Sequence record: PZ256263.1
Length of the DNA stretch: 64,000 nt
Origin: a phage
Direction: 5' to 3' (one strand)
The notes beneath the pieces were generated by a model that saw nothing but the letters and a program-made list of their open reading frames with translations, did no database searches and was not told the origin of the DNA. The stretch's first letter is position 1. Every line of letters starts with the position of its first letter. The position numbers were made by a program, and so were the translations under genes. Below, piece after piece: positions 11,644-54,191 of the stretch.

Positions 11644-11649
11644 GGTTAT

Positions 11650-11872: not shown

Positions 11873-11881
11873 GGAACTTAT

Positions 11882-12103: not shown

Positions 12104-12112
12104 GGAGTTCAT

Positions 12113-12286
12113 ATGAGCTGTTATGGTGGAGGTGAAGTTTATGATGACGATGATATGGAATCTAATGGGGAATGCCCCGATTGCGGGTGTGAGACGTTTG
12201 ATGGTGTATCAGTGTACCCTACCTGTAGTTACTCACCAGTGATTTGTAAAACATGTGGAGATCAACCTTGTGATCAGTCCTGTTAG
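12113..12286 (+). CDS. Small Cys-rich protein (57 aa)
   Basis: AAGGAG RBS; CPDCGC ... CKTCGDQPCDQSC; acidic DDDD run. Confidence 0.5.
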   Translation: MSCYGGGEVYDDDDMESNGECPDCGCETFDGVSVYPTCSYSPVICKTCGDQPCDQSC

Positions 12287-12287
12287 T

Positions 12288-12503
12288 ATGTTAATTATTT
12301 ACCTGATAGGTGTGGTGTTATCAGGTGTGTTCGTTAAGGTTGTTGATATTAAAGATGATCAAGTCTTCAGACATTGGAGCGGATATCCAAATCTCAGCAA
12401 AATAGCAATTGTCCTTTTCTTGTGGCCTATCATTGTTGCGTTGCTTATAATTATAGGACTTTGGACTTTGCTATGGGAGTTAATTCTTCCTGTCAAAAAG
12501 TAA
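12288..12503 (+). CDS. Small membrane protein (about 71 aa, two predicted TM helices)
   Basis: Hydrophobic segments IIYLIGVVLSGVFV and IAIVLFLWPIIVALLIIIGLWTLLW. Confidence 0.45.
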   Translation: MLIIYLIGVVLSGVFVKVVDIKDDQVFRHWSGYPNLSKIAIVLFLWPIIVALLIIIGLWTLLWELILPVKK

Positions 12504-12798
12504 GAGCTTATCGTGAAGGATTCTTACGAGAGTCCTTTGAGATAGGACTTCAGATCTCCTATCAAACTAACATTCATGTAACTAGCCCATAAGGGCGTTA
12601 CCCTTTAATAACCCAGCCCACTAAGGGGGCGGGAGTTTAGTGCTGGATGAGCATAACGCTTATTCCTACAAAGGCAACCGATTGTTAGATCTTACATGCA
12701 AACTTAATTAATAGGATAAGGGAGGATTCGTCCCCTCCCCCTATTTTATTGAATCTTTATCTAAGCAAGTCTTATATAAATGTTTAATTGGGGGATGT

Positions 12799-13110
12799 AT
12801 GAAAGCTCGAAGAACTATATGGACTCCGATACAGATTGAAAATCTTCGGAGATTAATCAAAGAATACTCTGTCCAAGAGATTGCTCAGATTATGAATGTA
12901 ACGGAGAATGCAGTTAATACAGCTTGCACTAAGTTCGGAATCTCTAGAGCTGTAATCCGAGTTAAGTGGTCTAAAGAAGAAGATCAGTTCCTTATCCGTA
13001 ATGCTGGGTTCATGTCTATTCAGAGAATGGCTGACATGCTCGGTAGAAGTTATGCTGCTGTACAGAACAGGGCATGTATGCACCTTAACATTAGCCTCAA
13101 ACTTAAATAG
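12799..13110 (+). CDS. Putative DNA-binding protein with two HTH-like repeats (103 aa)
   Basis: Internal duplication W..x..L..Lxxxxxx..IAxxM.....AV. reminiscent of sigma region 4 / Myb-like HTH. Confidence 0.45.
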   Translation: MKARRTIWTPIQIENLRRLIKEYSVQEIAQIMNVTENAVNTACTKFGISRAVIRVKWSKEEDQFLIRNAGFMSIQRMADMLGRSYAAVQNRACMHLNISLKLK

Positions 13111-13118
13111 GAATCAAT

Positions 13119-13373
13119 ATGAAAGTTAATGAGTTAAACAAAACTACCAAGACTGTGAAACTGCACACTCTGAAAAAGGGTGATACATTCCGTTTAGAGG
13201 AGAATGGTCCAATCCATATGGTTTGTACTGCGGCATCTACTAACTGGGTAGAAGTTGCACGAGATCGAGTAGTGTGTGTCAGGCTGGAAGATGGTAGTCT
13301 GAGCGGTCCAGTTGAAGGTATCTCTGTTATTCCTGTTAAGGTTGAAGCTAACGTTATTAAGGACTCTAAATGA
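13119..13373 (+). CDS. Small paralogous protein, family A member 8
   Basis: KKGDTFRLE ... family A pattern. Confidence 0.5.
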   Translation: MKVNELNKTTKTVKLHTLKKGDTFRLEENGPIHMVCTAASTNWVEVARDRVVCVRLEDGSLSGPVEGISVIPVKVEANVIKDSK

Positions 13374-13615
13374 AGATCATCCCAAAGAAAAAGGATAATA
13401 CGGTACGGTTGGAAACGATCATTCCCGGAAACCCCTTCGTGGTTCAGCACGGAAGTGCCTCTCCTCAATATTATATGAGGGTTGAAAATGCTTCTGGTAA
13501 TATCCGTATAGCCAGTGGCTGGGTTCCTGTGGTAAACCTTTCCACAGGTGTACTATCTGTTAAAGGTCTTGATGATCAGGTAGAAATGATTCGTATGTCA
13601 GTGGTTCAGGAGTAG
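13370..13615 (+). CDS. Small paralogous protein, family A member 9
   Basis: QYYMRV ... VVNLSTGVL family A pattern. Confidence 0.55.
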   Translation: MKIIPKKKDNTVRLETIIPGNPFVVQHGSASPQYYMRVENASGNIRIASGWVPVVNLSTGVLSVKGLDDQVEMIRMSVVQE

Positions 13616-13617
13616 GT

Positions 13618-13866
13618 ATGAGCATCATTAATATTAAGGTTAAGGGCAAGGAGGAAATAGTCCTCCGTGTTAGAGATCTAAATATGTCAGATGTGTTCAC
13701 TCTCCAAGAGTGTCAGAATCAAAAGATTTATATGCTTACAGCTAAAAGCAGGGGCTGTCAACCTGCTGGAGCTGTTAACCTAGGCACTGGAGAACTACGT
13801 GTCATCTCTGGTGATATGGTTGTTGGTGAGAAGTTTATTAAGGCTGAAATCATCTTAACTTCATAG
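13618..13866 (+). CDS. Small paralogous protein, family A member 10
   Basis: SDVFTLQ ... IYMLT ... AVNLGTGEL family A pattern. Confidence 0.55.
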   Translation: MSIINIKVKGKEEIVLRVRDLNMSDVFTLQECQNQKIYMLTAKSRGCQPAGAVNLGTGELRVISGDMVVGEKFIKAEIILTS

Positions 13867-13874
13867 GTGATCTA

Positions 13875-14087
13875 ATGACACAAGAAGAGAAAGATATACT
13901 CATCCAGAATGCGTATCTACTGTTTTCCTCTGAGGATGTTCTGTTCGATCAGCTTTCTAAATTGTGGAAAGTGTCCGAAGAAGAGACTAAAGAGAAGTTT
14001 TATTCTGGCATAACAGAAGATTACAAATCTTTTCTTGGTGAGGTGCTGAGAGATCGGCATGTGTATCTAAGTAATTACGCCTGTTAA
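13875..14087 (+). CDS. Hypothetical acidic protein (70 aa)
   Basis: ORF with GGTGA-like RBS. Confidence 0.45.
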   Translation: MTQEEKDILIQNAYLLFSSEDVLFDQLSKLWKVSEEETKEKFYSGITEDYKSFLGEVLRDRHVYLSNYAC

Positions 14088-14320
14088 TAGGAAAACAAGT
14101 GATCACATTTAATGATTCTACAGAAGAAATGACCAACATGAAAGGCTTCGGTCAACGACAGCCTGACGGTTCAATTATCTGGTTCGTAAATGGACAGAAA
14201 AAGGTAGCTAAATAAGCCCTCTTCTCTCCTCCTTTTAGTACTATGACGCCTCTCTGTGGGCGGCCCAATTTGCGTAGGGAATTCCCTCTACGCAGTCATG
14301 ATTTTTAAGGAATTTCCCCT

Positions 14321-14554
14321 ATGTCTAAAGTAAGTGCAATTGATGCAATCCGTCAACCGTTCCAGTTCCAATCCAAATCAACCCAAACCTTCAGCGAGCC
14401 TAAGCAAATTCGCTTGGGTGGCACAGAGAAGACTGTGTTTGATCTGGCTAAAAACAAGAGCGTTACCGTAGTTGATGGTGGCACTCTGGTTAACGTTTCC
14501 CATCGTATCCGCACTGGCAAAACTGCCAAAGATCGTGCTAAGAAAGGTGAGTAA
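14321..14554 (+). CDS. Hypothetical protein (77 aa)
   Basis: ORF with AAGGAA RBS. Confidence 0.45.
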   Translation: MSKVSAIDAIRQPFQFQSKSTQTFSEPKQIRLGGTEKTVFDLAKNKSVTVVDGGTLVNVSHRIRTGKTAKDRAKKGE

Positions 14555-14796
14555 TGAAAATAGGGAAACCAGCTAAGGATGTTCTAGCGAAGATTGGTGA
14601 TATCTCTATTGGGGAAGTTTTCTCAGCTGAGCACTTTTCAAGTTACTACATGAGAATCCCTGACACTAAAGTTGAGGGTTGCATCATCCCTGCCAACGCA
14701 GTTAACCTGAACACAGGACACCTGTCTGCATTCAAACCTGATTCACAGGTTACTGAAATCAAAGATGCCTACCTCGCCTTTGGTGGGGATAAGTAG
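14554..14796 (+). CDS. Small paralogous protein, family A member 11
   Basis: IGEVFSAE ... SYYMRI ... AVNLNTGHL family A pattern. Confidence 0.55.
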   Translation: MKIGKPAKDVLAKIGDISIGEVFSAEHFSSYYMRIPDTKVEGCIIPANAVNLNTGHLSAFKPDSQVTEIKDAYLAFGGDK

Positions 14797-29020: not shown

Positions 29021-29554
29021 ATGGGTTTACTAGGAAGTATTGAACTGCACGATGTAATTGACAATGGTTATCTGGGTGCGGAGCATAAATATGTTAACGC
29101 TGCTAGTGTGGATATCCGTATTGGTGATACTATCCTTGTTGAAGAACAGGCTGATGGCATCGTTGATATTGATGCGAAAGAGAATCTTCAGTGGAAGGAA
29201 GTAAAGATTCCTGAAGAAGGTTTGGTTATCACTCCGGGTCAGTTCTTCTTGGCTCACTCTATGGAGGAGTTTAATCTTCCAGATAACATCTCAAGTCTGT
29301 TTGTTCTGCGTTCGTCTATGGCTCGTTGTGGTTTGAACCACCTTCACGCCGGTTGGGCAGATGCAGGATTTAATAGTAGTAAGCTGACATTTGAATTCCA
29401 TAACGTAACCAAGCACCACAGCTTACGAGTTCGTGCTGGTATGCGTGTTGGTCAGATGGTTATGTTTGAGCACTCTCATGCAGGGGAACATTCCTACGCA
29501 GTGAAGGGTCGTTATAATAACTCTGAAGGTGTGGTTGCATCTAAAGGTGTGTAA
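29021..29554 (+). CDS. dcd: dCTP deaminase (dUTPase-superfamily)
   Basis: AASVDIRIG, LRSSMARCGL, DAGF, GMRVGQMVMFE align by eye with Dcd. Confidence 0.75.
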   Translation: MGLLGSIELHDVIDNGYLGAEHKYVNAASVDIRIGDTILVEEQADGIVDIDAKENLQWKEVKIPEEGLVITPGQFFLAHSMEEFNLPDNISSLFVLRSSMARCGLNHLHAGWADAGFNSSKLTFEFHNVTKHHSLRVRAGMRVGQMVMFEHSHAGEHSYAVKGRYNNSEGVVASKGV

Positions 29555-29752
29555 ATGAAAAAGTGGATTGTTCGTGTACATGATAACACGACTGGAGAGT
29601 TAGTAGCTGTAGATTTTGTTAAGACTCGAGAACACGCACGTAGGGTCAAAAATCAATACAAATCTACTTTTAGACTTAATAAGGTTACACTAGGAAAAGC
29701 TATCGTGAATAGTGAAGGTGCTTTTTGTGTTAACAGTAAGGTTTATTATTAA
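29555..29752 (+). CDS. Small paralogous protein, family B member 1 (65 aa)
   Basis: Three tandem 65-69 aa ORFs with shared basic pattern and C-terminal aromatic pair; TAATG start/stop overlaps. Confidence 0.5.
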   Translation: MKKWIVRVHDNTTGELVAVDFVKTREHARRVKNQYKSTFRLNKVTLGKAIVNSEGAFCVNSKVYY

Positions 29753-29961
29753 TGAGACCAATCACCATGAGACAATTTTGGTTAGCAAAGATTAAGTGGG
29801 CATCAGGTGGCATGACTATGACTGCACTACCCACTCGCCAACAAGCTCGAGATTTTAAAAAGACTATGCTTACTGGTGACGTGGTCAACAGTATCAGTAT
29901 CCATAAGGCCAAGGAGTATTCTTCTGGTCGTGTTTATATCAGCGGAAAGGTACATTACTAA
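29752..29961 (+). CDS. Small paralogous protein, family B member 2 (69 aa)
   Basis: Same pattern as 29555-29752; TAATG overlap. Confidence 0.5.
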   Translation: MRPITMRQFWLAKIKWASGGMTMTALPTRQQARDFKKTMLTGDVVNSISIHKAKEYSSGRVYISGKVHY

Positions 29962-30170
29962 TGAAAAAGATGTGGGCTATTCATGTTGTTTGGGATCTTG
30001 AGCAACACACGAGAAAAGATAACATCAAATTGTTTGACACTCGCAAAGAGGCTCGTATTGCTAAGAAACAGTTGAAGACTCTGGGCACAATAGTAAAAAG
30101 CGCTGACATACATCGCTGGTATGAAGACCCTAACACTGGTTCTTTTATGTCTAAAGTAATTTACTACTGA
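29961..30170 (+). CDS. Small paralogous protein, family B member 3 (69 aa)
   Basis: Same pattern; TAATG overlap. Confidence 0.5.
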   Translation: MKKMWAIHVVWDLEQHTRKDNIKLFDTRKEARIAKKQLKTLGTIVKSADIHRWYEDPNTGSFMSKVIYY

Positions 30171-30194
30171 TTGGTAGTAGATATGATAACTCTC

Positions 30195-30203
30195 AAATGT
30201 ATA
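30195..30203 (+). promoter_or_regulatory. AAATGTATA motif (candidate phage-sigma promoter)
   Basis: Near-consensus motif 40 nt upstream of the ATG at 30243. Confidence 0.35.
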
Positions 30204-30242
30204 TAGAGTACAATAAGAATTTGTATTTTACAGGAGAGAGTT

Positions 30243-30569
30243 ATGTTAGATTTGAGTAAAGTGGCCCCGCCCACTGAAGAGATTACAAAATCCAAGGTGA
30301 TGCAACAGTTTTATCATCGTGATATGCTTGGTCGCTTTATCAAGAATCGTGATGTTGTTGCTTGGTCTATTGGTAATCAGGGATATCTGTTGAAGGTTCT
30401 TCAGGTTACAGGTTCAACTGCTAAGCGGGTTAAGGTGTATGACCCTGAAATGGGGCGTTCTAAGTCAGTAGACCCACAGAACTGCATCGTAATTACCCAG
30501 CAGGTGATAGCAAATCTAGAAAGAAATGTAGCAAACTCTACTGAGTTAGAAGGAGAAGACCCTAAGTGA
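30243..30569 (+). CDS. Hypothetical protein (108 aa)
   Basis: GGAGAGAG RBS. Confidence 0.5.
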   Translation: MLDLSKVAPPTEEITKSKVMQQFYHRDMLGRFIKNRDVVAWSIGNQGYLLKVLQVTGSTAKRVKVYDPEMGRSKSVDPQNCIVITQQVIANLERNVANSTELEGEDPK

Positions 30570-31060
30570 TTCCAAAGGAATTGGAAGGGAAGATTGATGT
30601 AACAGAAGATGGTAGAGTATTTACTATAAAGAGTGGAAGGTTTTTAACCCTCCACACTAATGGTGCCTATTACAGAGTTACTATTTACTTTCCTGAAGGA
30701 TTAAAGAATTTCTATGTCCACAGGCTGGTTGCTAGTAAGTACATACCGAACCCTGATAATCTTCCATGTGTCAACCATAAGGATGGCAATAAACTCAACA
30801 ATCATAAAGATAATCTTGAATGGTGTACCCACCGAGAAAACTCTCAACATGCATCATCATTAGGTCTGATGGTACAGAGGTTTGGAGAAGACAATCCACA
30901 GTCTAAACTTACTCTAGAAGATGTAGAGTACTGTAGGAGAGTTTATATCCCTCGAGATAAAGAGTTTGGAGGCTCTGCCCTTGCAAGACGTTTTGGTGTC
31001 TCTCAGCAAGTGATATCAAAAGTTCTACTTAATCAAACTTGGAGGGAATATAATGCATAA
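30566..31060 (+). CDS. HNH homing endonuclease (164 aa)
   Basis: NHKDGNKLNNHKDNLEWCTHRENSQHA HNH signature plus C-terminal HTH-like region. Confidence 0.8.
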   Translation: MIPKELEGKIDVTEDGRVFTIKSGRFLTLHTNGAYYRVTIYFPEGLKNFYVHRLVASKYIPNPDNLPCVNHKDGNKLNNHKDNLEWCTHRENSQHASSLGLMVQRFGEDNPQSKLTLEDVEYCRRVYIPRDKEFGGSALARRFGVSQQVISKVLLNQTWREYNA

Positions 31061-31616
31061 GAATGTCTTTGATTTACCTGAGATTGGTCGTGTCGAATAC
31101 AATATGTTAGACCGATCTGAGCTTTCAATCTCTCGTCTTGAAACGATGCAGGGTATGATTAGCGGAAACAGCCTAGAACACATCCTGAGCTGCTTACAAG
31201 CTAACATGGAACTCTTGCATATCAAAGCTAAAAACTACCACTGGAACGTCTCTGGTGCAGGATTTCAGGGTGTTCATGGTATGTTTGATGAGCTGGAAGA
31301 TTACGCACGACAGGTAGGAGATCGTATTGCTGAACGTATGCGTTACCACTGTGTTAAAGTGGATGCTACAGCAGCTAACTACCTCTCTCATGCTTGGTTC
31401 TCAGAGGGTAATGCTGATCTGGACATGGACGGTATGCTCTCTGATATGTGCATGACCTTGATGTGTATTATTGAGAAGATGGATGAGTTTGATGGTGATT
31501 TAGCCACCTACCCTGTCGATCAGAGTATGCTTCAAGAAATTAATGAAGGTCTTGGCAAGTATTGCTACTTCGTCAAGAGCAACATGTCCCATTCAAGTGG
31601 TGACGTGTCTTACTAA
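31053..31616 (+). CDS. Dps-like ferritin-fold protein (187 aa)
   Basis: HIKAKNYHWNVSGAGFQGVHGMFDELEDYARQVGDRIAERM matches the Dps ferroxidase-centre signature by eye. Confidence 0.65.
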   Translation: MHKNVFDLPEIGRVEYNMLDRSELSISRLETMQGMISGNSLEHILSCLQANMELLHIKAKNYHWNVSGAGFQGVHGMFDELEDYARQVGDRIAERMRYHCVKVDATAANYLSHAWFSEGNADLDMDGMLSDMCMTLMCIIEKMDEFDGDLATYPVDQSMLQEINEGLGKYCYFVKSNMSHSSGDVSY

Positions 31617-31677
31617 AAACCTCCGCCCTGTCTCCTAACCCGAGGTGGGGCGAACTTATTTATAAGGATATAGATAT

Positions 31678-31857
31678 ATGTTATCAGCAATCGTATGGGG
31701 TATTTGGGCTATCTTTATTGGTGGTGGTATTTATTGGGCTTCTGGTAAGCTTATTGAAGAAACTCCTGATAAGAAAGGTGAGATTCAAACAGCATCAACT
31801 ATCATGGTTATCGTAGCTGTTGTTATCCCATTCCTGCTTCACCTCCTGACTGCATAA
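31678..31857 (+). CDS. Small two-TM membrane protein (59 aa)
   Basis: Two hydrophobic helices (AIVWGIWAIFIGGGIYWA; IMVIVAVVIPFLLHLL). Confidence 0.4.
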   Translation: MLSAIVWGIWAIFIGGGIYWASGKLIEETPDKKGEIQTASTIMVIVAVVIPFLLHLLTA

Positions 31858-31865
31858 GGATTTAC

Positions 31866-32141
31866 ATGTCTAAAGTAATTAAGTTTTATAGTGATCAGTG
31901 TGCTCCATGTAAAGCAATGGCTCCTACCTTTGAGAAGGTTGTTAAGGAGTTTGATGTAGAAGTGGAAGAGATTAACATCCTTGAAGGTGATGGTCGTGAA
32001 CAAGCTGTTAAGTATGGTGTACGAAGTATCCCTGCTTTCGTTGTGCCTGACCGTAACAGTGGTGCACACTACAGCCTCTCCGGTATGCAGACTGAAGCAA
32101 ACCTGAAAGCATTTTTGGACACAGCCCTGAGAAATAAGTAA
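31866..32141 (+). CDS. Thioredoxin-fold protein (CAPC active site), 91 aa
   Basis: FYSDQCAPCKAMAP active-site region and thioredoxin-like length. Confidence 0.7.
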   Translation: MSKVIKFYSDQCAPCKAMAPTFEKVVKEFDVEVEEINILEGDGREQAVKYGVRSIPAFVVPDRNSGAHYSLSGMQTEANLKAFLDTALRNK

Positions 32142-32156
32142 TAAGGATATTCACGG

Positions 32157-32813
32157 ATGAATGAACAACTACAAGCAACATTAATTGAAGCTATGGGAAG
32201 TGATCGTAGCGTAGTAAACGCAGCTCGAGTTTCCTTTGGCGTAACCCGTGAAGGTGATTTAAATGAACGTGATGAACGTCTCATCAACTTTCTCGCAAGA
32301 GAGAAGCATGTTACCCCATTCCGACACCCGCAAGTCAGTTTCCGATGCAAAGCACCTATTGCAATTGCGAGACAGTTGGGCAAGCATCAGGTTGGATTCT
32401 CGTGGAACGAAATGTCCCGGCGGTATAAAGATGGAGCAGTTGAAGTCTTCATCCCTAAAGAGATTTTTGCGAGACCTTCGGACCTCCATGCAGGTTCAGG
32501 GGTTCAACTCATCGACGGAGAGCGAGCTGAAGCATTAATGCTGATTAACGATTCATATGAAGCTTCTCTAGCAGCATATGACAAGTTGATTGAATTTATT
32601 GCACCAGAGCAAGCTCGATTTGTTCTTCCTCAGGGGATGATCACTGAGTGGGTGTGGACCGGTTCTTTGTATGGCTGGTTTGAGTTGTGTCGTCAGCGAC
32701 TCTCCTCTCACGCTCAATATGAAGTTCGAGTGTTTGCTAAATCTCTAGATGAAGAGATGGCTAAGCTCTACCCAATCTCGTGGGCAGCTCTGAAGAAAAC
32801 TTTGGAGAGTTAA
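32157..32813 (+). CDS. thyX: Flavin-dependent thymidylate synthase (ThyX-like)
   Basis: FRHPQVSF ... GFSWNEMSRRY resembles the ThyX RHR...S.RY signature; by eye. Confidence 0.65.
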   Translation: MNEQLQATLIEAMGSDRSVVNAARVSFGVTREGDLNERDERLINFLAREKHVTPFRHPQVSFRCKAPIAIARQLGKHQVGFSWNEMSRRYKDGAVEVFIPKEIFARPSDLHAGSGVQLIDGERAEALMLINDSYEASLAAYDKLIEFIAPEQARFVLPQGMITEWVWTGSLYGWFELCRQRLSSHAQYEVRVFAKSLDEEMAKLYPISWAALKKTLES

Positions 32814-32829
32814 TATCAGAGGCTTTCTG

Positions 32830-33063
32830 ATGAAAATCAAACATATTACAGATATTCAGGAGGCATTTAGAATGCTTCCTCGAAGAGAGAAGGATAAGAT
32901 TAAAAAGCTTATTCAAGTTTATGGTCATACATCTAAAGATGATGTAGACTATATGCCTTCTACTTTCGTAGAGTGTGGGATTGCTCGCGGTTTCACATTC
33001 GACCATAAAGTGTTTCAGCAATTCGTTGACCACTGGAGAAAAGATGGAAAAGAAAGTCTGTAG
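32830..33063 (+). CDS. Hypothetical protein (77 aa)
   Basis: ORF with RBS-like sequence. Confidence 0.45.
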   Translation: MKIKHITDIQEAFRMLPRREKDKIKKLIQVYGHTSKDDVDYMPSTFVECGIARGFTFDHKVFQQFVDHWRKDGKESL

Positions 33064-33229
33064 CTTCTGTAAGAAAGAGAAGCCTATCATCAATTTTAAG
33101 CCCAATCCTGTGACTGGTTTGTCTCATGTTATGTGCCACTCCTGTAGGACATACCTTGAAATAAAACACACTATCAATAGGTTGCATTATTATCACCCAA
33201 CAACATTCAAATTTAAGGTTGTGAAATGA
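33044..33229 (+). CDS. Small zinc-ribbon protein (61 aa)
   Basis: GGAGAAAAG RBS; CSFCKK ... CHSCRT. Confidence 0.45.
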   Translation: MEKKVCSFCKKEKPIINFKPNPVTGLSHVMCHSCRTYLEIKHTINRLHYYHPTTFKFKVVK

Positions 33230-33429
33230 AAACTTTGTGGACTCTTGACTGCCAAGACGATGACGGAGAGCGTTGGACTTGGAAATATTTCCTAGGGAAA
33301 CCGACACCTGATAACCCTGCTTTGGATTGTGCTTCATATGAAGACGCCAAGAAATTGGTAAACGGAGAGAAAGTTTGGTCTCCGGATAATGAAGTTATGT
33401 ACTTTTTAACAGAACGGAAATTTTCATAA
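33226..33429 (+). CDS. Hypothetical protein (67 aa)
   Basis: ATGA overlap. Confidence 0.45.
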   Translation: MKTLWTLDCQDDDGERWTWKYFLGKPTPDNPALDCASYEDAKKLVNGEKVWSPDNEVMYFLTERKFS

Positions 33430-33758
33430 TGATCGATGGTAATACATTTAGGACTTCAAATGGAAGTGAAATAAGTCCCGCTGAAGTAATCAATCGGCAT
33501 AGAAGGCAATTGATCATCCATTCCTATTTGTATTACTGGTTGGATGACCCTATCTGGTCTGATGATAAATGGCAACAAGTTGCTAATGATTTGGTTGAGT
33601 TGCAAGCCTTATATCAAGAGCCTACCGGAGTCTTTGACAATGAGTTCAAAGATTGGGATGGTTCTACAGGAATGCATCTCCCACACAACGAGGCTGTTGC
33701 TTGTATGGCGACAGCTGTTTACAGGATTCATAAAGATATGAACCATGAAGTGCTCTAA
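33429..33758 (+). CDS. Hypothetical protein (109 aa)
   Basis: TAATG overlap. Confidence 0.5.
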   Translation: MIDGNTFRTSNGSEISPAEVINRHRRQLIIHSYLYYWLDDPIWSDDKWQQVANDLVELQALYQEPTGVFDNEFKDWDGSTGMHLPHNEAVACMATAVYRIHKDMNHEVL

Positions 33759-33930
33759 ATGTGAAGGAACAAACCTTCATTTAAGTAATAAGGTTATCAG
33801 AGAGCTTGCCAAAGGCTCTCCAACCAAAGGGAAGAACAAACGATTTACTAACGTCAGGGTTTATACAGCAATCTGTAAAGACTGCTTAACTACTGAGTGT
33901 CATTACGAAGAAATTGGAGAGCGTAAATGA
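33745..33930 (+). CDS. Small zinc-ribbon protein (61 aa)
   Basis: CSKCEG ... CKDCLTTEC. Confidence 0.45.
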   Translation: MKCSKCEGTNLHLSNKVIRELAKGSPTKGKNKRFTNVRVYTAICKDCLTTECHYEEIGERK

Positions 33931-34664
33931 GTCGTCGTCAATCACGGAAAGAATCACGGAAAGACCTTCGTCGGGAAGCACTTGTCACTCGTAAGGGTAA
34001 GCGAGAGTTTGAAGAGGTGGTTTTAGCAAAGCCTGTAGTCCCTCAGAACCAGTTTCAGTCTGAGCTACTCAATGCTATTAAGACTAAACAAGTTGTGTTC
34101 ACAGACGCTCCTGCGGGCTGTGGTAAGACCTTTGTAATCACTTCCACAGTTATTGATGCACTGAAGAGTGGTAAGATTCAGAAGATCATTCTGAGTCGTC
34201 CTTCAGTTGGTATGGGCAATTCTCTTGGGTTGCTTCCGGGAGGGATGCGTGAGAAGTTTGAACCTTACCTGATGCCTATCATTGATGTTATTACTCAGCG
34301 ATATGGTAAGGGGTTCTATGAATGCCAGCTCGGTAACAGTAACATTGAGTTCGTACCTCTGGAATATCTCCGTGGTCGTTCTTTCAATGATGCTATTGTT
34401 ATTGTTGATGAGTTCCAGAACACAACTAAAGATGAAGCCTTCTCAATCATGACTCGATTGGGAGAAACCTCTCAGCTGTTCTGCATGGGTGATACTAACC
34501 AGCATGATATGCGTGGTCGTGAGAGTGGTCTTACTTGGGCTACTAACTTTATTGATGAACATGATCTGTATGAGTTCGCTGAGATTGTAGACGGAGAATC
34601 AGATGACATTGTTCGTTCTGGTTTTTGTAAGGCGATTGTTAAAGCAATGGAAAAGAAAGCTTAA
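33927..34664 (+). CDS. phoH: PhoH-like P-loop ATPase (245 aa)
   Basis: Walker A DAPAGCGKTF, Walker B IVIVDEFQN and overall PhoH-like layout. Confidence 0.75.
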   Translation: MSRRQSRKESRKDLRREALVTRKGKREFEEVVLAKPVVPQNQFQSELLNAIKTKQVVFTDAPAGCGKTFVITSTVIDALKSGKIQKIILSRPSVGMGNSLGLLPGGMREKFEPYLMPIIDVITQRYGKGFYECQLGNSNIEFVPLEYLRGRSFNDAIVIVDEFQNTTKDEAFSIMTRLGETSQLFCMGDTNQHDMRGRESGLTWATNFIDEHDLYEFAEIVDGESDDIVRSGFCKAIVKAMEKKA

Positions 34665-34675
34665 ATAGTAACTTA

Positions 34676-34698
34676 TAATGTATACTCCTTAATGTACA
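34676..34698 (+). promoter_or_regulatory. Tandem TAATGTATA / TAATGTACA motifs (candidate phage-sigma promoters)
   Basis: Exact consensus at 34676-34684 and a near copy at 34690-34698, 37 nt upstream of an AAGGAG RBS and the ATG at 34721. Confidence 0.4.
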
Positions 34699-34720
34699 CT
34701 GATATATTAAGGAGTTTTAA

Positions 34721-35035
34721 ATGGCAGACCATGTAGGAAAGAGAGATTATGCACAAGAAAGACGTACCGCAATTGCCCGTGGTGAGACAGGCGTTGGGAG
34801 CAAGAGCGGAGATGCTCAGCGCCACCGTGCACGTCGCATCGTTGAAAAGCGCGATGGAAAAGCTGCTGTCAGAGGTAAAGATGTTGGACACAAACGAGCT
34901 GTCAAGTCTGGAGGCTCTAATGCGTCAAGCAACTTACGTGTTGAATCAGTCAGCTCAAACCGTTCAAACGGCGGCAAAAGTGGTGATCGAGCTGGAAAAG
35001 CAGCTGGAGCACGCAAAGGAGCTTTAAGCTCATAA
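34721..35035 (+). CDS. Highly basic Gly/Ser/Arg/Lys-rich protein (104 aa), likely abundant
   Basis: Consensus AAGGAG RBS at ideal spacing; third-position A/T bias matches other genes, unlike the G-rich third positions of overlapping ORF 34749-35027. Confidence 0.5.
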   Translation: MADHVGKRDYAQERRTAIARGETGVGSKSGDAQRHRARRIVEKRDGKAAVRGKDVGHKRAVKSGGSNASSNLRVESVSSNRSNGGKSGDRAGKAAGARKGALSS

Positions 35036-35045
35036 AGAGGTTATA

Positions 35046-35339
35046 GTGTCAGCAGAAACAAAAAGATGTACAATTCACACTTATTGTAAATTCTGTAAAG
35101 CAGAGGGTGTAAAAAGAGTTGCAACTTTAATGACCAAGTATTCTCCAAGTAGAGGATACAGGGACCACTATAAGCACTACTCTTGTAGTGATCACTCCCA
35201 TCTATTAGAAGATACAGACCCGAATAGAACAAGGAGAGAGCATAACATCGATCTGAGAGCTACTCTCAAGGAAATGAAAAATAACTCTCGGAACAACCAT
35301 TACACTGAAGCTGACTATCAAACTTGGCTTCGTCTCTAG
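35046..35339 (+). CDS. Hypothetical Cys/His-rich protein (97 aa)
   Basis: GTG start after AAAGAGG; CxxC ... C.DH.H. Confidence 0.45.
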   Translation: MSAETKRCTIHTYCKFCKAEGVKRVATLMTKYSPSRGYRDHYKHYSCSDHSHLLEDTDPNRTRREHNIDLRATLKEMKNNSRNNHYTEADYQTWLRL

Positions 35340-35344
35340 AACAA

Positions 35345-35379
35345 AGGCTGCCTAATCAGGTGGCCTTTTCTTTTTTATA
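35345..35379 (+). terminator. Rho-independent terminator
   Basis: AGGCTGCC-taatca-GGTGGCCT stem (two G-U pairs) followed by TTTTCTTTTTTAT. Confidence 0.55.
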
Positions 35380-35408
35380 AACCAAATTAAACTTCTTAGG
35401 TAATAAAT

Positions 35409-35663
35409 ATGTCTATTGTAAAAATCGTAAATATCATTGATGTAACTCGTACCGGTAAGACTATCAGTTGGAAATTCACCAATAAGCATAGAGGTTCAGA
35501 GAACATCATTCGTTATATGATTCAACAAAACCCAAATACAGCTCGCACTAACGTACTCCTTCGAGGAGCTGATGGAAAATTTATTTCTTATAAGAATAAG
35601 AACGTAGAAAAATCTTTCCGTGTTGCAGTAGAAAACCTCATCCCATTCCCTAAAGGAGTTTAA
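35409..35663 (+). CDS. Small paralogous protein, family C member 1 (84 aa)
   Basis: Shares TARTNVLLRGADGKFISYK ... ENLIPFPKG with 35665-35949. Confidence 0.5.
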   Translation: MSIVKIVNIIDVTRTGKTISWKFTNKHRGSENIIRYMIQQNPNTARTNVLLRGADGKFISYKNKNVEKSFRVAVENLIPFPKGV

Positions 35664-35664
35664 T

Positions 35665-35949
35665 ATGAATAAGTTAGCTATGGTTCAGATTCGAGACACA
35701 TACCCTAATCGCCCAGAACAGAAACCACGTACTTGGTCTTACCTACTAGCTGAGAGTAAGACTATTGACAACTTCTCTGTAGGGATTGATACTATCCCGA
35801 CCAGTATCACTTTGCTTCCTCACAAAACAGCCAGAACTCATGTGATGTTACGAGACAGCAAAGGTAAATTTATCTCTTATCGTGATTCACGAATCAATAA
35901 TGAGATTAAATCTGCTATGGAATTTTTGATGCCATTCCCAAGAGGTTGA
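35665..35949 (+). CDS. Small paralogous protein, family C member 2 (94 aa)
   Basis: TARTHVMLRDSKGKFISYR ... EFLMPFPRG. Confidence 0.5.
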   Translation: MNKLAMVQIRDTYPNRPEQKPRTWSYLLAESKTIDNFSVGIDTIPTSITLLPHKTARTHVMLRDSKGKFISYRDSRINNEIKSAMEFLMPFPRG

Positions 35950-35952: not shown

Positions 35953-36111
35953 ATGAAAGAATACATTTATGTAGGACAGCGCTGGTTCGGTGATGAATGG
36001 GAAGGTGGATATAGCGTTGTGAAAGCTTTTAAGTCTGAGGAAGATGCCAAGGCATGGGTCTTAAAAGATGACGTTGGCGAGAGAACTTATATTGAAGTCG
36101 AGGTAGAGTAG
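35953..36111 (+). CDS. Small acidic protein (52 aa)
   Basis: ATG 3 nt after the upstream stop; below the ORF-track cutoff. Confidence 0.35.
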   Translation: MKEYIYVGQRWFGDEWEGGYSVVKAFKSEEDAKAWVLKDDVGERTYIEVEVE

Positions 36112-36112
36112 G

Positions 36113-36535
36113 ATGCCATTACCAGCTAGACATCAAAACCGTTTCCTAGTTCTCAAGTGGGATGATATCGAAATGAATCTCACTGAACACGAACTTGATT
36201 TGTTCCATGAACTACTGTCAGAGATTCGCTCTGGTATCCCTGATCGTCAGTATGTAGTTATCAGTGATAAGCACCCTCAAGAGTTTGAAGAAGCTTGGGG
36301 TATGAAGCTGGCTTATATTCAGAGAGCTATTCGAGAAAGAGAAGAAGTCGCTAACCAAAGGGTTGTGGCTCATTTAGTACGAGAGCAACCTCGTGAAGCT
36401 AGGGCTAACCATGCACCACCCCCACCCCCTCCTTGGACAGTTGTCAACGGGACAGTTAGGGCTTACAGTGATGAAGCTACCATGTTAGATGTAGTAGAAG
36501 ACAACCAAGCATTTACAGATTTACTTTACCAATAA
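36113..36535 (+). CDS. Hypothetical protein with poly-Pro tract (140 aa)
   Basis: ORF abutting the upstream gene; PPPPPPPW tract. Confidence 0.5.
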   Translation: MPLPARHQNRFLVLKWDDIEMNLTEHELDLFHELLSEIRSGIPDRQYVVISDKHPQEFEEAWGMKLAYIQRAIREREEVANQRVVAHLVREQPREARANHAPPPPPPWTVVNGTVRAYSDEATMLDVVEDNQAFTDLLYQ

Positions 36536-36551
36536 TTTAAAGGAGTATAAA

Positions 36552-38396
36552 GTGAGCAACCCGGACGCTCTCCCATTTTTGACAGAGATGACTGTCGCTG
36601 ATATAATCTCTAAGCAAGCAAAGCACGGAGTGAGTTTCAACCGAAGAAATGCTCGGTGGTATGTTCACCTCCTTAAAGAGATTATTGTTAATATTGACAA
36701 AGAACTGATTCCTCTCTTACCTAAGATGAGATTAGATGGCTCAACTTATATGAAGCCGTTTAAGAAGTCTGGAGCTTTACAGAAGTGGCCTCAAGCCTAT
36801 TGCGATAGAGTTGGCCTCAAGAGAGAAGACATTGGTGGAGCATTCACCTGTGTCGAGTACGTAGACTTTGACCCATCGAAAGATGCACGAGTTAAAGAAG
36901 CCCTTATGGATGAGGGTTTTCTTCCTCCAGAGTTTAACGTATCTAAAAAGCCTTGGAACACTTTCGAAATTAAGAAAGACATGCGAAAGTATGGAACATA
37001 CCAAGCATGGTACACCGCTTGGATGCGAGGCAATGCTAAACAGAAACAGACAGCCGAGATGGTTGACGCTGATATTAAGAAGTTCTTAGAGAAACACTTT
37101 AGGTTCAAGACTAAGAACTACATGAAGGCTTATGTGTTTGGTTTGGGATTAAACCCTAACCGACGTAACCCTGTAACATTTGACGAGATTAAGAAAGCAC
37201 TAGCTACCTCAAACAAGTGGCCTACAGCTCCTACAAACCTCGAGGAGACTCTTGAAGAAGGGTTAGGGGGTGAGCTAGGGAGTGTCGGAAGTTTGCTTAA
37301 GAGACGTGTTGTAGCGGCTCACAGGCTAGGTCTTATTAGTGGACTTATAGCAAAGGAGCGCGAAGATGGTAAACTTTCGGCAGAAGCTAACAGCTGCGCT
37401 ACGCCGACTTTTCGATTCAAACATCGTATCGTGGTTAATATTCCCTCCCGTGGTTTGTTTGGTCATGAGTGTCGCAGTTTGTTTGAGTCTGACTATAACT
37501 CAGATGATGATCACTCTCGTCCTTTCGTTATTACTAACGTTGTTCCTGATGGTTGTTATATACGAAAAGGTACTAACGTAATTTATGAAAAAGGTAAGCC
37601 GGGGAAGAAAGATAAGCCTGTAGGTGCTTACAAATATTACATACCCGCTGGTAAAGAAGTATTCTTAGGGTATGATGGTTCTGGATTAGAGTTGCGTATG
37701 CTTGCACACTACCTCATTAAAGAGTGTAGAGATATGCTTGCTGAAGCAATAGAAGAAAACAATCCAGCTAAGAAAGCTCTGGCAGAACGTGGTTTAGCTT
37801 CTGCTATTATGTATCGTGATATTCTCCTTGAAGGTGATATCCACTCTCACAACCAGAAACTTGCTGGTCTTCCTACTCGTGACAACGCTAAGACATTTAT
37901 CTACGCATTCAACTATGGTGCTGGTGATGCTAAGCTCGGTTCAATTGTAGGTGGTGGGGCTGACGAAGGTTCAGTGATGCGAGCACGTTTCTTGGCAGAG
38001 AACCCGTGTATTGCAATCCTCATTGATCGTATGACAGAGAAAGCTGCTCAAGGATACTTGATTGGTGTTGATGGTCGTAAGATTACAATGAGACGGGATG
38101 CCACTGGTAAGGTTATGGTTCATAAAGCACTTAACACCCTCCTGCAATGTGCTGGTGCTGTTGTTATGAAATATGCTATGATGTTCCTTAACAAGTGGAT
38201 TGAGAGAGATGGGGTTCGTTGTGCTAAGGTAATTGATATGCACGATGAGGGCCAGTTCTCAGTGAACCGTAATGATGTACAGAAACTCAAAGAACACACC
38301 GAGCTTTGTGTTAAGAAGGCTGGTGAGTATTTGAACATGGAATGTCCTCTGGCATCTGATTGTCAGATTGGACTTAACTGGATGCATACACACTAA
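36552..38396 (+). CDS. Family-A DNA polymerase, polymerase-domain subunit (614 aa)
   Basis: Motif A LGYDGSGLELRMLAHY, motif B RDNAKTFIYAFNYGAGDAKLG, motif C VIDMHDEGQF; no exonuclease motifs in this ORF. Confidence 0.85.
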   Translation: MSNPDALPFLTEMTVADIISKQAKHGVSFNRRNARWYVHLLKEIIVNIDKELIPLLPKMRLDGSTYMKPFKKSGALQKWPQAYCDRVGLKREDIGGAFTCVEYVDFDPSKDARVKEALMDEGFLPPEFNVSKKPWNTFEIKKDMRKYGTYQAWYTAWMRGNAKQKQTAEMVDADIKKFLEKHFRFKTKNYMKAYVFGLGLNPNRRNPVTFDEIKKALATSNKWPTAPTNLEETLEEGLGGELGSVGSLLKRRVVAAHRLGLISGLIAKEREDGKLSAEANSCATPTFRFKHRIVVNIPSRGLFGHECRSLFESDYNSDDDHSRPFVITNVVPDGCYIRKGTNVIYEKGKPGKKDKPVGAYKYYIPAGKEVFLGYDGSGLELRMLAHYLIKECRDMLAEAIEENNPAKKALAERGLASAIMYRDILLEGDIHSHNQKLAGLPTRDNAKTFIYAFNYGAGDAKLGSIVGGGADEGSVMRARFLAENPCIAILIDRMTEKAAQGYLIGVDGRKITMRRDATGKVMVHKALNTLLQCAGAVVMKYAMMFLNKWIERDGVRCAKVIDMHDEGQFSVNRNDVQKLKEHTELCVKKAGEYLNMECPLASDCQIGLNWMHTH

Positions 38397-41223: not shown

Positions 41224-41692
41224 AGAACCTGTAGTTTATAAAGACTCTATCAGAGATCAATATAATGAGATGTTAAAGAAACAAGCTGATTCTAATCTTC
41301 GTTATCAGAGGATAGTAGAACAATCTAACTTTAAAGGTTTACTTGAATGGTAACTTATATCCTTTACTTCTTAGCTTTCTTAGGAATAGTCTTTTTATCT
41401 ATTATTCTTGAATTTGGTTTAAGTAAGTTAGTTAATTATTTAGGTAGTAAGTAATTAATATTCTTTTAAATAGAGAATCAAAGTCCCTAGGAGTCCCCAC
41501 AACCTAAATCAAGGATTCCTTAATTCTCTATTTTTATCTCGCAGGTGGCTCCTGCCCTTCGGTACTTGCAAGGGATTCTATGAATTGCCCAATGTACAAG
41601 CCTGCAAGAGTTATTCTCTAACTCTACCTTATATACATTACCGTTAGTGAGTATCTACTACCAATAAAATGATACTTATCTTACAAAAGTTA

Positions 41693-41701
41693 TAATGTAT
41701 A
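41693..41701 (+). promoter_or_regulatory. TAATGTATA motif (candidate phage-sigma promoter)
   Basis: Exact motif 60 nt upstream of the ATG at 41761, inside a 400-bp AT-rich intergenic region. Confidence 0.4.
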
Positions 41702-51524: not shown

Positions 51525-51533
51525 TATACATTA
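51525..51533 (-). promoter_or_regulatory. TAATGTATA motif (candidate phage-sigma promoter)
   Basis: Minus-strand CTATAATGTATATA, 39 nt upstream of the ATG at 51486. Confidence 0.4.
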
Positions 51534-53222: not shown

Positions 53223-54191
53223 TTAAGTACTAGCCAACCCACCGATTACACCCCCAGCTAATGCACCCCAAGGCCCAAAGGAAGAGCCAGCTGCTGCACC
53301 ACTCATAGTTCCACCAAGGAAACCACCTTTGCCACCAGATGTTTTAGTAGTTGTAGTTTGTCCGAGAGCACCGTTAAGTACACCTGCTGCACCGAGTTGG
53401 TTATTGATATCTTGCCATCCCCAATTAGCTGCGTTCTGAGCATTCTGGTAGGCATTATCATATTCATTCTGTTGTTGCTGTTGTTGCTGCAACCCTGCAT
53501 TCCATTGATTCATTATTTGCTGTTGAGACAAATTAGCACCCTGCTGACCTAGGTTAGAAAGGTTAGAACCAATATTAGAAAGACCAGAGAGAGCAGCTGC
53601 CTGATTCTGTCTATTACCAGAGAGGATGCTTTCAGCTTGGCTAATAGCCGAGTTATAGGCACTATTGGTAATATCTGTTGCTTGGCCTTGCATCTGATTC
53701 AGAGCATCACCTTGGGCAAAAGACTTAGCCATACGAGCACCTGAACCTTGTTGACCAGCATACTGTTGAGCTAACTGAGGAAGAGCATTACGTGCCAAGT
53801 TCTGTTGAACCTGTTCATTATTAGCTGTAATGGCTGCTTGCACAGCGTCATCATCATACAGTTGACCAGCGAGAGCACCAATCTGTTCTCCAGTAATCCC
53901 ACCTTGTCCAGAGAGGCTCTGATAGCCTTTATAGGCATTATCCAGATACCCTAACCCTTGACCTGCTGCATCCATGTATTGCTGTGAGAGAGTGCCTAAA
54001 GCGCCAGATTGTGCTAGGTTATTAAGTGCCTCTGTCTGATTATTATTAAACCCTACATTGTCACGATAAACATAATCCCCTGAACTAGTATTACCAATCT
54101 GTTGGTTAAGCTGGTCAATATACTGTTGAATGTATTCAGGGCGAATCATTTGGGAAGTAGTTTTACTACCCCCGCCTCCGAAAAGTCCCAT
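53223..54191 (-). CDS. Q/N/G/A-rich low-complexity virion protein (322 aa)
   Basis: Strong compositional bias (QQQQQ, GxG runs). Confidence 0.5.
   Translation of the reverse strand: MGLFGGGGSKTTSQMIRPEYIQQYIDQLNQQIGNTSSGDYVYRDNVGFNNNQTEALNNLAQSGALGTLSQQYMDAAGQGLGYLDNAYKGYQSLSGQGGITGEQIGALAGQLYDDDAVQAAITANNEQVQQNLARNALPQLAQQYAGQQGSGARMAKSFAQGDALNQMQGQATDITNSAYNSAISQAESILSGNRQNQAAALSGLSNIGSNLSNLGQQGANLSQQQIMNQWNAGLQQQQQQQNEYDNAYQNAQNAANWGWQDINNQLGAAGVLNGALGQTTTTKTSGGKGGFLGGTMSGAAAGSSFGPWGALAGGVIGGLAST

Follow-up and report, generated by a model that had tools for sequence, protein, structure and literature searches.

Small ORFan genes account for a large share of the coding capacity of lytic phages that is still unexplained, and this includes the Kuraviruses, which are under development for therapy. 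The window analysed here, a whole stretch of 64,000 nucleotides (record PZ256263.1), comes from a Kuravirus (phiEco32/SU10-like) podophage of E. coli with 97% identity to published genomes, and FS2B, Bas90, MN03 and others show 97% identity to the region under study; SU10 itself is classified as Gordonclarkvirinae; Kuravirus. A first-pass annotation had picked out two tandem sets of tiny ORFs in this region, three copies of a family B and two of a family C, in addition to a larger family A. Are these sets genuine gene families, when did they duplicate, and what might their products do?

We show that B1-B2-B3 and C1-C2 are real protein-coding genes and make up two independent families, each derived from an old tandem duplication within the non-structural replication/nucleotide-metabolism module of the Gordonclarkvirinae lineage. 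They are genuine, old tandem duplications kept by selection, and they are ordinary "hypothetical protein" families common to ~100 sequenced relatives. Combined with a putative accessory role of the products in phage DNA metabolism, discussed below, this forms our main reading, to which, taken jointly, we assign a probability of roughly 0.6.

Family B lies directly behind the dCTP deaminase gene (29021-29554; all features given here are on the plus strand), a conserved upstream neighbour of the array that is annotated in Bas90 and SU10 and for whose ortholog in the uncultured relative L013 a Pfam DCD domain is recorded. The stop codon of dCTP deaminase is followed at once by the B1 start (TAAATG), and the B1/B2 and B2/B3 junctions are one-base TAATG overlaps. 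B1 (29555-29752; 65 aa, pI 10.1) is an accessory member of the family, B2 (29752-29961; 69 aa, pI 10.4-10.6) is the core member, with a 64-aa form from an internal ATG at 29767, the Met at which many of its orthologs begin, and B3 (29961-30170; 69 aa, pI 9.8) closes the array; the three proteins end in VYY, VHY and IYY, respectively. All three match phrog_4939 over their full length (B1, residues 1-65 on profile positions 2-67 of 67, E=1.2e-27; B2, E=6.8e-28; B3, E=8.3e-28), and B1 matches the B-family HMM with E=7e-33. Pairwise hhalign comparisons of the B orthogroup profiles gave end-to-end alignments with P = 8e-6, 1.3e-7 and 2.4e-10, and local-alignment shuffle z-scores were 8.4 for B1-B2 and 9.7 for B2-B3, with 0/2000 shuffles reaching the observed score. 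Among 91 B sequences, W5, T-R-x-x-A-R-x-x-K and a C-terminal Tyr are invariant or near-invariant, a motif that we define here from the alignment; it recurs in the divergent representatives P0180-P0199 and is common to ~110 sequences. The unannotated phrog_4939 is also matched by a dispersed fourth copy, B4, in ECBP2 and by divergent copies in L013 and L009, and does not record the ordered orthogroups (B1-B4) or their tandem array after dCTP deaminase.

Family C follows a very basic 104-aa protein (34721-35035; phrog_4590), which is its conserved upstream partner in all relatives examined and which in L016-L018 stands immediately before C with 70-82% identity. Directly upstream of C1 lies a terminator-like hairpin (35343-35378; 11-bp stem and T run), and SU7 has an annotated terminator at the equivalent place. 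C1 (35409-35663; 84 aa, pI 10.6), which is universal and represents the ancestral type, is separated by 1 nt from C2 (35665-35949; 94 aa, pI 10.0), a second copy found in Kuravirus and Suseptimavirus. Both copies carry TART.V.LR...GKFISY...E.L.PFP(K/R)G and match the unannotated family phrog_6814 over their full length (C1, E=3.9e-38; C2, E=7.9e-37), and they find each other by BLASTP (E=7e-12) and with a shuffle z of 19.2 (0/2000 shuffles reach the observed score). Downstream, a 52-aa ORF, a 140-aa protein and DNA polymerase A (PolA, 36552-38396) extend over 35953-38396, and the order C, 140-aa family, PolA, after the 104-aa protein, is conserved in L016-L018. The label "autotransporter adhesin", carried by one C gene in a few GenBank records, finds no support in our analysis.

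The first-pass annotation had given the coordinates and TAATG junctions of the three 65-69 aa B ORFs (29555-30170), their aromatic C-terminal pattern and the shared motif of the two C copies (35409-35949) exactly as we find them, and it had staked these families on intra-family similarity, which is significant for all B orthogroups by profile comparison and, by shuffling, for every pair but B1-B3 taken alone. That pair, with a non-significant shuffle z of 2.0 and no BLASTP match, together with the shortness and lysine/arginine-richness of the proteins, would be expected if the similarity reflected chance or composition, or if the ORFs were not genes at all. We consider such an explanation close to negligible, since full-length profile-profile P values reach down to 2e-10, independent PHROG models recover both families, the invariant B motif is so widely shared, and genomic position is conserved. 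Moreover, dN/dS is well under 1, at 0.12-0.32 for the five genes (B1 0.27, B2 0.12, B3 0.23, C2 0.13) and 0.02-0.03 for two neighbouring genes, those of dCTP deaminase and PhoH, indicating that all five are coding genes under selection; a Shine-Dalgarno-like sequence precedes each B and C start. As judged by these ratios, the copies are shown to be retained by purifying selection. Within C1, a hypervariable N-terminal half (dN/dS 0.43) adjoins a conserved C-terminal half (0.08), and the N-terminal half has been exchanged between lineages (dN 0.38, dS 0.88).

Family A comprises 11 copies (8063-14796) that resemble B and C in their small size, tandem duplication and strand, and an iterated HMM search over the window recovered exactly 11 such ORFs. 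With three B and two C genes this amounts to 16, in agreement with the earlier count of at least 16 genes in small duplicated families, and the PHROG, hhalign and shuffle results, together with the family A count, support the accompanying proposal that tiny genes have commonly duplicated and diverged in this genome. Similar size (65-95 aa), a shared strand and tandem arrays could also mean that A, B and C all belong, as divergent branches, to one small-protein superfamily spread through the genome, the more so as family A alone spans several cross-hitting PHROGs. We regard this as highly improbable: hhalign probabilities are 0.5% for A vs B, 0.0% for A vs C and <1% for B vs C, the B and C HMMs, applied to all window ORFs, match nothing but their own members at E<=1, the B vs C shuffle z is ~0, no PHROG is held in common, and the predicted secondary structures of B and C differ. 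Family A further has a distinct pattern (GDVF...Y.M....VNL.TG) and lies in the early gene cluster, described as likely host takeover (PMC8948821), whereas B and C lie in the replication module. On these profile comparisons, the proposal is best qualified as concerning three unrelated families and not a single superfamily.

How old are the duplications? No DNA-level repeat is left among the copies, so that their similarity is visible in protein only, and the paralogs have diverged to 22-34% identity. By orthogroup-specific HMM scores, Kuravirus and KBNP1711 keep the order B1-B2-B3 and Suseptimavirus keeps B2-B3. Because orthogroups B1-B3 and C1-C2 keep their order in other genera, the duplications are, by this comparative evidence, ancient and older than the Kuravirus/Suseptimavirus split, which adds a second qualification, namely that they are not recent events in the window genome. 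Copy number varies across related phages, as the first-pass annotation had led one to look for, with 1-4 B and 1-2 C copies per genome: B2 is present in 99/99 records, B3 in 95, B1 in 65 of ~99 (by tblastn count) and C in 99. Phage LAMP and locus L005 have B2 as their sole tandem B copy, the single C copy of LAMP is C1, and those of L007 and L008 are closer to C1 than to C2; B2 and C1 are shown to be the universal copies. Three tandem B genes follow DCD in L013, and the dispersed B4 is present in NJ01, KBNP1711, ECBP2 and Paul.

Family B always follows dCTP deaminase, and family C is in every case found a short way upstream of DNA polymerase. In divergent relatives, dCTP deaminase retains 74-86% identity and a B-like ORF again comes directly after it, even in the 90-kb divergent contig L007. 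The DCD/B junction is at the same time an insertion hot spot, with unrelated small ORFs there in SU10 and ECBP2. Ancestrally, there appears to have been a single B gene right behind dCTP deaminase and a single C gene shortly upstream of DNA polymerase; in Kuravirus-like phages, B would then have grown to two or three copies in tandem, now and then joined by a dispersed fourth, and C to two, and some lineages would have lost copies again. Five small ORFans are now assigned to two paralog families, both old and with stable orthogroups; each of the two shows one universal copy, a defined invariant motif and a fixed place beside dCTP deaminase or DNA polymerase, so that fewer experiments should be needed to assign function and likely essential copies can be told apart from accessory ones. 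What this adds is a refinement, at the level of annotation, to a phage group already known; no new biological principle emerges.

In the intergenic gap between B3 and a 108-aa gene, a motif scan found AAATGTATA (30195-30203), which differs at one position from tAATGTAtA, the promoter element of the phiEco32 gp36 sigma factor (consensus from PMC8948821), and B3 is the last gene before it; this motif putatively marks the end of the transcription unit carrying B, and its position agrees with a middle promoter reported upstream of CDS68 in SU10 (PMC4281155). An exact gp36-type element, TAATGTATA (34676-34684), lies between PhoH and the 104-aa gene and is likely the middle promoter for the unit containing C1 and C2; in SU10, a promoter was placed between CDS56 and CDS57 (PMC4281155). 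In a genome-wide scan, the count of gp36-type motifs was not above chance. The SU10 study assigned CDS69-125 to the early class and detected neither B nor C among the proteins found by mass spectrometry (PMC4281155), and the YF01 study assigned the replication genes (gp23-81 in its own numbering) to the middle class.

The B and C products are stand-alone, lineage-restricted ORFans of 7.5-11 kDa and very basic (pI 9.8-10.6), and the homologs found are all stand-alone proteins of 62-109 aa on phage-sized contigs; a single 648-aa match proved to be spurious and of low complexity. The AF2 model of B3 (pLDDT 87.9, pTM 0.71) has a beta-beta-alpha-beta-beta topology, and family B is predicted with good confidence to form a four-stranded sheet packed on one helix, whose N-terminus bears the invariant T-R-x-x-A-R-x-x-K. 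Family C (AF2 model of C2, pLDDT 78.4) has a variable N-terminal half, then an invariant hairpin (TARTxVxLRxxxGKFISY) and a helix, with an invariant PFPxG tail behind them that is modelled with low confidence. Pfam-A and NCBIfam gave no match near the curated cut-off for the five proteins, nor for 91 B and 88 C homologs scanned singly. Profile searches against PDB sequences returned nothing significant (best E 0.11 for B, 0.08 for C), and Foldseek against the PDB returned no match at E<=0.001 (best E 0.45 for B, 0.61 for C).

What, then, might these proteins do? We tentatively propose, at somewhat less than even odds, that B and C are small proteins that assist phage DNA metabolism as accessory factors, in association with nucleic acid or the replisome; the circumstantial support comes from their basicity, their conserved basic helix or hairpin and their conserved place beside dCTP deaminase or DNA polymerase. 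Binding to nucleic acid, or to an acidic partner in the replisome, would go through the conserved basic surface (the helix of B; the hairpin and tail of C), and the divergent parts (the beta-hairpins of B and the N-terminal half of C1) would give each paralog its own partner or specificity. Tight TAATG translational coupling would supply the B paralogs in similar amounts, delivered late in a long early transcript, at about the time when replication starts. The coming and going of B1, B3 and B4 between genomes, the DCD/B insertion hot spot and the exchange of the C1 N-terminal half sit uneasily with a purely housekeeping form of such a role.

Alternatively, B and C may be host-takeover or anti-defence effectors, each paralog neutralising a different host protein or immune variant, with duplication, loss and mosaic exchange reflecting an arms race. 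Small, stand-alone, lineage-restricted ORFans of variable copy number (B1 in 65/99 records, B4 and C2 missing from some genomes) fit this description, as does the entry of unrelated small ORFs into the B slot of SU10 and ECBP2; B2 and C1, however, occur universally and keep their synteny across genera as well as in divergent relatives of 80-100 kb, which is unusual for anti-defence cargo. Evolutionary rates cut both ways, with dN/dS 5-15x above that of the neighbouring enzymes, dN and dS both raised in the hypervariable C1 N-terminal half and B3 orthologs with swapped C-terminal hairpins, but clear purifying selection (0.12-0.32) on all copies. Since both families also lie inside the replication/nucleotide-metabolism module, not in the early host-takeover cluster of family A, and match no characterised inhibitor, we consider this alternative unlikely. 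The accessory role could also be combined with features of the effector view, though we hold the combination to be a long shot: B and C would be two undescribed folds serving as small basic adaptors of a phiEco32-type replisome, whose invariant elements (the TRxxARxxK helix and terminal Tyr of B; the hairpin and flexible PFPxG tail of C) dock on a conserved phage or host replication component, and whose fast-evolving, recombining parts (the C1 N-terminal half and the B3 hairpin) would serve to recognise variable host factors or defence proteins. In that case, the arrays of paralogs would make up a modular system of specificity, and co-translation might allow the B paralogs to form hetero-oligomers.

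Two comparisons with known proteins bear on family B. Among the top non-significant Foldseek matches of B3 is p56, the Ung inhibitor of the phi29 family (TMq 0.42, E 0.8), which is of comparable size and likewise has a small alpha/beta architecture, with no sequence similarity to B. p56 mimics DNA and is acidic; the B proteins, by contrast, are strongly basic (pI ~10), and both this difference and the weakness of the match argue against an anti-defence function. Closer likenesses come from the BFVD, in which uncharacterised proteins of 73-80 aa from Salmonella SE131, Cronobacter GAP52 and CsaP_009 and Aeromonas LAh_8, other C3-morphotype podophages, have a predicted B3-like fold (TM 0.67-0.73, Foldseek E 1e-3 to 4e-2) and a similar size. 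Their identity to B is only 18-23%, and searches with the B HMM returned none of them as a named record. These fold matches suggest that the predicted B fold reaches into the wider phiEco32/7-11 phage group.

Families B and C are two independent, ancient and selected paralog families that encode compact, basic, stand-alone proteins on the + strand, comprising B1 (29555-29752), B2 (29752-29961) and B3 (29961-30170), and C1 (35409-35663) and C2 (35665-35949). The first-pass annotation had picked out both sets from the sequence, and its coordinates, lengths, two TAATG overlaps, aromatic C-termini and common C motif all match our results, as does its claim of intra-family similarity, which is significant in both families. 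C1 and C2 align by BLASTP with E=7e-12 and 50% identity across the C-terminal 40 residues (shuffle z-score 19). The B copies are far more diverged, at 22-28% identity; the B1-B2 and B2-B3 similarities are each significant alone (shuffle z 8.4 and 9.7), and the B1-B3 single-sequence comparison is not (shuffle z 2.0). Using 92 homolog clusters, which single linkage at 55% identity resolved into three orthogroups (the orthologs of B1, B2 and B3), we compared orthogroup profiles and found that hhalign aligns them end to end with P = 8e-6 (B1-B2), 1.3e-7 (B1-B3) and 2.4e-10 (B2-B3). All three B proteins are assigned to phrog_4939 (PHROGs v4, E~1e-27), and both C proteins to phrog_6814 (E~1e-37).

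HMM-HMM comparison across the small-gene families, including family A of the early region, found the B copies interrelated and A, B and C mutually unrelated, so that a single superfamily is rejected (hhalign probabilities for A-B, A-C and B-C all <1%). Among all ORFs of the window the B and C HMMs match their own members only, and no PHROG common to the three families was found; together, these results define three independent families. The earlier total of 16 small duplicated genes is correct, since an iterated HMM recovers exactly 11 family A ORFs, amid which lies a tRNA-Arg gene (anticodon TCT; 10998-11073, +). Separately, the late (structural) region carries on the - strand an adjacent paralog pair of 322 and 350 aa (53223-54191 and 54204-55256; BLASTP E=4e-11 with 31.6% identity over 275 aa), and both members lack a Pfam match.

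The segment 29000-36600 matches 100 records of the phage collection by megablast, nearly all of them Escherichia or Shigella phages, and the closest genomes, including FS2B, SkaterBoy_Bas90, MN03 and SU10, are 94-97% identical over ~90% of the query. SU10 is classified in Caudoviricetes, Gordonclarkvirinae, Kuravirus, and the window therefore derives from a phiEco32-like podophage of C3 morphotype. Both families lie in the non-structural module, and every gene from 5000 to 46000 is on the + strand. Genes for a primase/helicase, a Pol exonuclease subunit and a nucleotidyltransferase precede that for dCTP deaminase (29021-29554), which is followed by B1, B2, B3 and a 108-aa gene, and then by genes for an HNH_3 endonuclease, a Dps/ferritin-like protein, thioredoxin, ThyX, further genes and PhoH. 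Between PhoH and C1 come the genes of a basic 104-aa protein and of one of 97 aa, and beyond C2 come a 52-aa ORF and the genes of a 140-aa protein and of DNA polymerase A (PolA). The HNH_3 homing-endonuclease gene (30566-31060, +; Pfam E=7e-9) interrupts the interval between the 108-aa and Dps/ferritin-like genes; it is missing at the equivalent place in Bas90 and SU10, and SU7 has an HNH gene elsewhere, between thioredoxin and ThyX.

Across relatives the synteny is fixed, with family B adjoining dCTP deaminase and family C accompanying PolA and the 104-aa and 140-aa proteins. We tentatively read both families as accessory factors of phage DNA metabolism, to which we assign a probability of roughly 0.35-0.4. 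Of the neighbours of C, the 104-aa protein (34721-35035, +; phrog_4590) is very basic and Gly/Ser/Arg-rich, always lies directly upstream of C, and is 70-82% identical in divergent relatives (homologs at L016:6614-6928, L017:6636-6950 and L018:6349-6666 of the compared loci), where the C gene is merely ~35-55% identical. It contains a weak HNH-like motif, DVDH..GGSN..NL..N, that is below threshold (Pfam HNH E 0.15-0.23) and in which G replaces the first D in the window protein; a 92-aa ORF (34749-35027) overlaps its gene in a different frame. The 140-aa protein (36113-36535, +), always encoded between C and the DNA polymerase, has a PPPPPP run, a conserved N-terminal stretch of ~70 residues and an acidic, aromatic-ended C-terminus, and its versions in relatives reach 256-269 aa.

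Copy number varies among relatives, as the first-pass annotation had proposed to look for. Orthogroup-specific HMMs show the B1-B2-B3 order kept in Kuravirus and KBNP1711, B2-B3 in Suseptimavirus (SU7, ECBP2), and B2 as the sole array copy in LAMP, a reduced phage of 68.5 kb, and in the metagenomic locus L005. A dispersed fourth copy, B4 (phrog_4939), is absent from the window and is flanked by thioredoxin and ThyX in NJ01, KBNP1711, ECBP2 and L005, a metagenomic Kuravirus (B4 genes at L004:6575-6784, L006:6939-7148, L011:10081-10296 and L005:6026-6235), and tblastn matches downstream of B3 suggest that Paul and WFI101126 have it as well. An uncultured relative carries three tandem B genes in this slot, with dCTP deaminase on one side and the 108-aa/Dps pair on the other, and a more divergent 90-kb contig has one weak B-like ORF after dCTP deaminase and another after PolA. 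In the phage collection 99 records contain B2, 95 contain B3 and 65 contain B1. The C1-C2 order is kept in Kuravirus and Suseptimavirus, and LAMP and divergent 80-100 kb phages have one, C1-like copy. No DNA-level repeat is left among the paralogs, and this, the conserved order and the copy patterns of relatives argue that the duplications of both families are ancient and shared, with later losses and with B2 and C1 as the core copies.

The junction between dCTP deaminase and B is an insertion hot spot for small genes. SU10 and ECBP2 have gained unrelated small ORFs there: the one following dCTP deaminase in SU10 (L002:2054-2260) was rejected as a fourth B copy, belonging to phrog_2347, and that of ECBP2 (L011:7598-7789) is likewise unrelated to B (phrog_7508). 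Such a hot spot beside the B array, together with the variable presence of B1, B3, B4 and C2, favours the main rival explanation, that B and C are host-takeover or anti-defence proteins. We consider this rival unlikely, and less probable than a role in DNA metabolism, as B2 and C1 are universal, syntenic and located outside the early host-takeover cluster that holds family A; the remaining probability falls to roles other than these two.

Pairwise Nei-Gojobori comparisons among the orthologs of the window plus six to eight related loci gave dN/dS values of 0.27 (B1), 0.12 (B2), 0.23 (B3), 0.32 (C1) and 0.13 (C2), compared with 0.03 for dCTP deaminase and 0.02 for PhoH, such that all five genes are under purifying selection that is several-fold more relaxed than that on the enzymes. 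Each of the five starts is preceded by a Shine-Dalgarno-like sequence. Because numerous B2 orthologs begin at an internal Met (MRQFW... or MKKFW...), the real start of B2 in the window may be 29767 rather than the TAATG-coupled 29752.

The five proteins, of 7-11 kDa, are strongly basic (pI 9.8-10.6) and predicted to fold well, and AF2, given alignments of 91 (B) and 88 (C) sequences, returned two usable models. B3 (pLDDT 87.9, pTM 0.71) is predicted to form strands at 2-11 and 21-25, a helix at 28-40 and strands at 45-56 and 60-63, and C2 (pLDDT 78.4, pTM 0.68) three N-terminal strands, a helix at 41-49, a hairpin at 56-70, a helix at 79-88 and a low-confidence tail. Each family combines one conserved face with variable parts. 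Invariant residues of B, in B3 numbering, are M1, W5, T27, R28, A31, R32, K35 and the final one, Y69; on the model, surface conservation falls on the N-terminal half of its only helix, and the strands and hairpins vary. In C the N-terminal half is variable, and the invariant or nearly invariant positions are T55-Y72 (TARTxVxLRxxxGKFISY), A84, E86, L88 and the terminal P-F-P-x-G.

The fastest-evolving piece is the N-terminal half of C1 (35409-35540; dN 0.38, dS 0.88, compared with 0.005 and 0.17 for dCTP deaminase), which is hypervariable although the genomes are otherwise ~95% identical, C1 being present at 95% identity or more in just 6/99 phage records. Because dS is raised, the pattern points to recombinational exchange of old alleles more than to point-mutational change alone. 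Some B3 orthologs have swapped, partly B2-like C-terminal hairpins, with at least three alternative hairpin sequences in the orthogroup (P0079, P0082, P0083, P0088-P0090, P0092), one of which (…FEFSGNRGSYISGDVHY) is similar to the B2 C-terminus, suggesting recombination or gene conversion between paralogs. Hypervariability of the C1 N-half is a further point in favour of host takeover or anti-defence. If B and C are instead accessory factors of DNA metabolism, the conserved basic helix (B) or hairpin plus tail (C) would serve to bind either nucleic acid or an acidic component of the replisome, sub-functionalisation of the paralogs would have proceeded through their variable parts, and TAATG coupling would lead the B paralogs to be made in roughly equal amounts.

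The promoter element of gp36, the phiEco32 sigma factor, is tAATGTAtA (PMC8948821, PMC4281155). One such element, with one mismatch, lies at 30195 (+) in the gap directly 3' of B3, in agreement with the promoter upstream of SU10 CDS68, and an exact one at 34676 (+), between PhoH and the 104-aa gene, agrees with that between SU10 CDS56 and CDS57 (PMC4281155). Over the whole window the motif count is not above chance, and thus only this positional agreement with the literature carries weight. Further exact elements (TAATGTATA) occur at 3108-3116 (+), 41632-41640 (-), 41693-41701 (+) and 51525-51533 (-); the divergent pair at 41632/41693 lies a few kb upstream of the GC skew sign change (~46 kb), near the boundary of + strand non-structural and - strand late genes. 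Because a gp36-type element sits directly after B3, family B would close a long transcription unit running from early promoters through primase/helicase and dCTP deaminase. Family C would belong to a middle unit dependent on gp36, downstream of a terminator-like hairpin (35343-35368) with a T run. The SU10 paper classes as early those replication genes that lie upstream of gene 68 (PMC4281155), whereas the YF01 paper calls them middle; mass spectrometry of SU10 detected neither B nor C proteins (PMC4281155). A perfect sigma-70 consensus (TTGACA, 17 nt, TATAAT, upstream TG; 12/12) at 36579-36607 (+) lies inside the DNA polymerase ORF (start 36552), among its first ~20 codons.

Scanned one by one, the five proteins and ~180 homologs gave nothing reproducible in Pfam or NCBIfam, nor did the second PHROG matches of the five; DUF5893 was discarded as a B relative (3/91 members, best E 0.007, chance-level). 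For both families, PDB sequence profiles gave nothing below E 0.08, and Foldseek of the AF2 models against the PDB found no significant neighbour (best E 0.45 for B and 0.61 for C), leading us to reject, at E >= 0.45, the B candidates PsaD, p56, Cas2 and ERH and the C candidates ribosomal protein LX and FNIII. No result supports a likeness of the C hairpin to an AP2/integrase-type DNA-binding sheet, or of the C tail to an SSB-like C-terminal tip, and we claim neither. With the B profile, an index-free HMM search across 1.84 billion protein representatives returned 23 clusters only, stand-alone and 65-79 aa long save one spurious low-complexity 648-aa match, and among them no domain fusion hinting at function. 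The extended C profile returned 112 clusters, all of 62-109 aa and none with a Pfam domain, the significant ones on phage-sized contigs.

In ~100 public genomes the B and C genes carry the label of hypothetical proteins, and their paralogy is implicit in PHROGs; the SU10 (PMC4281155) and YF01 papers leave it unmentioned, the word 'paralog' occurring 0 times in either. That small ORFan genes form tandem families is well known from lytic phage genomes; our analysis adds a rigorous test of homology, the division into orthogroups, a copy-number map, invariant motifs, conserved synteny and confidently predicted folds that have no known neighbour. Against BFVD, Foldseek recovers the B paralogs themselves (TM ~0.8) and, beyond these, uncharacterised phage proteins only. 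Among them (TM 0.67-0.73) are proteins of 73-80 aa from phages of Salmonella (SE131), Cronobacter (GAP52, CsaP_009) and Aeromonas (LAh_8), and the predicted B fold thus probably extends, unannotated, across the wider phiEco32/7-11 group.
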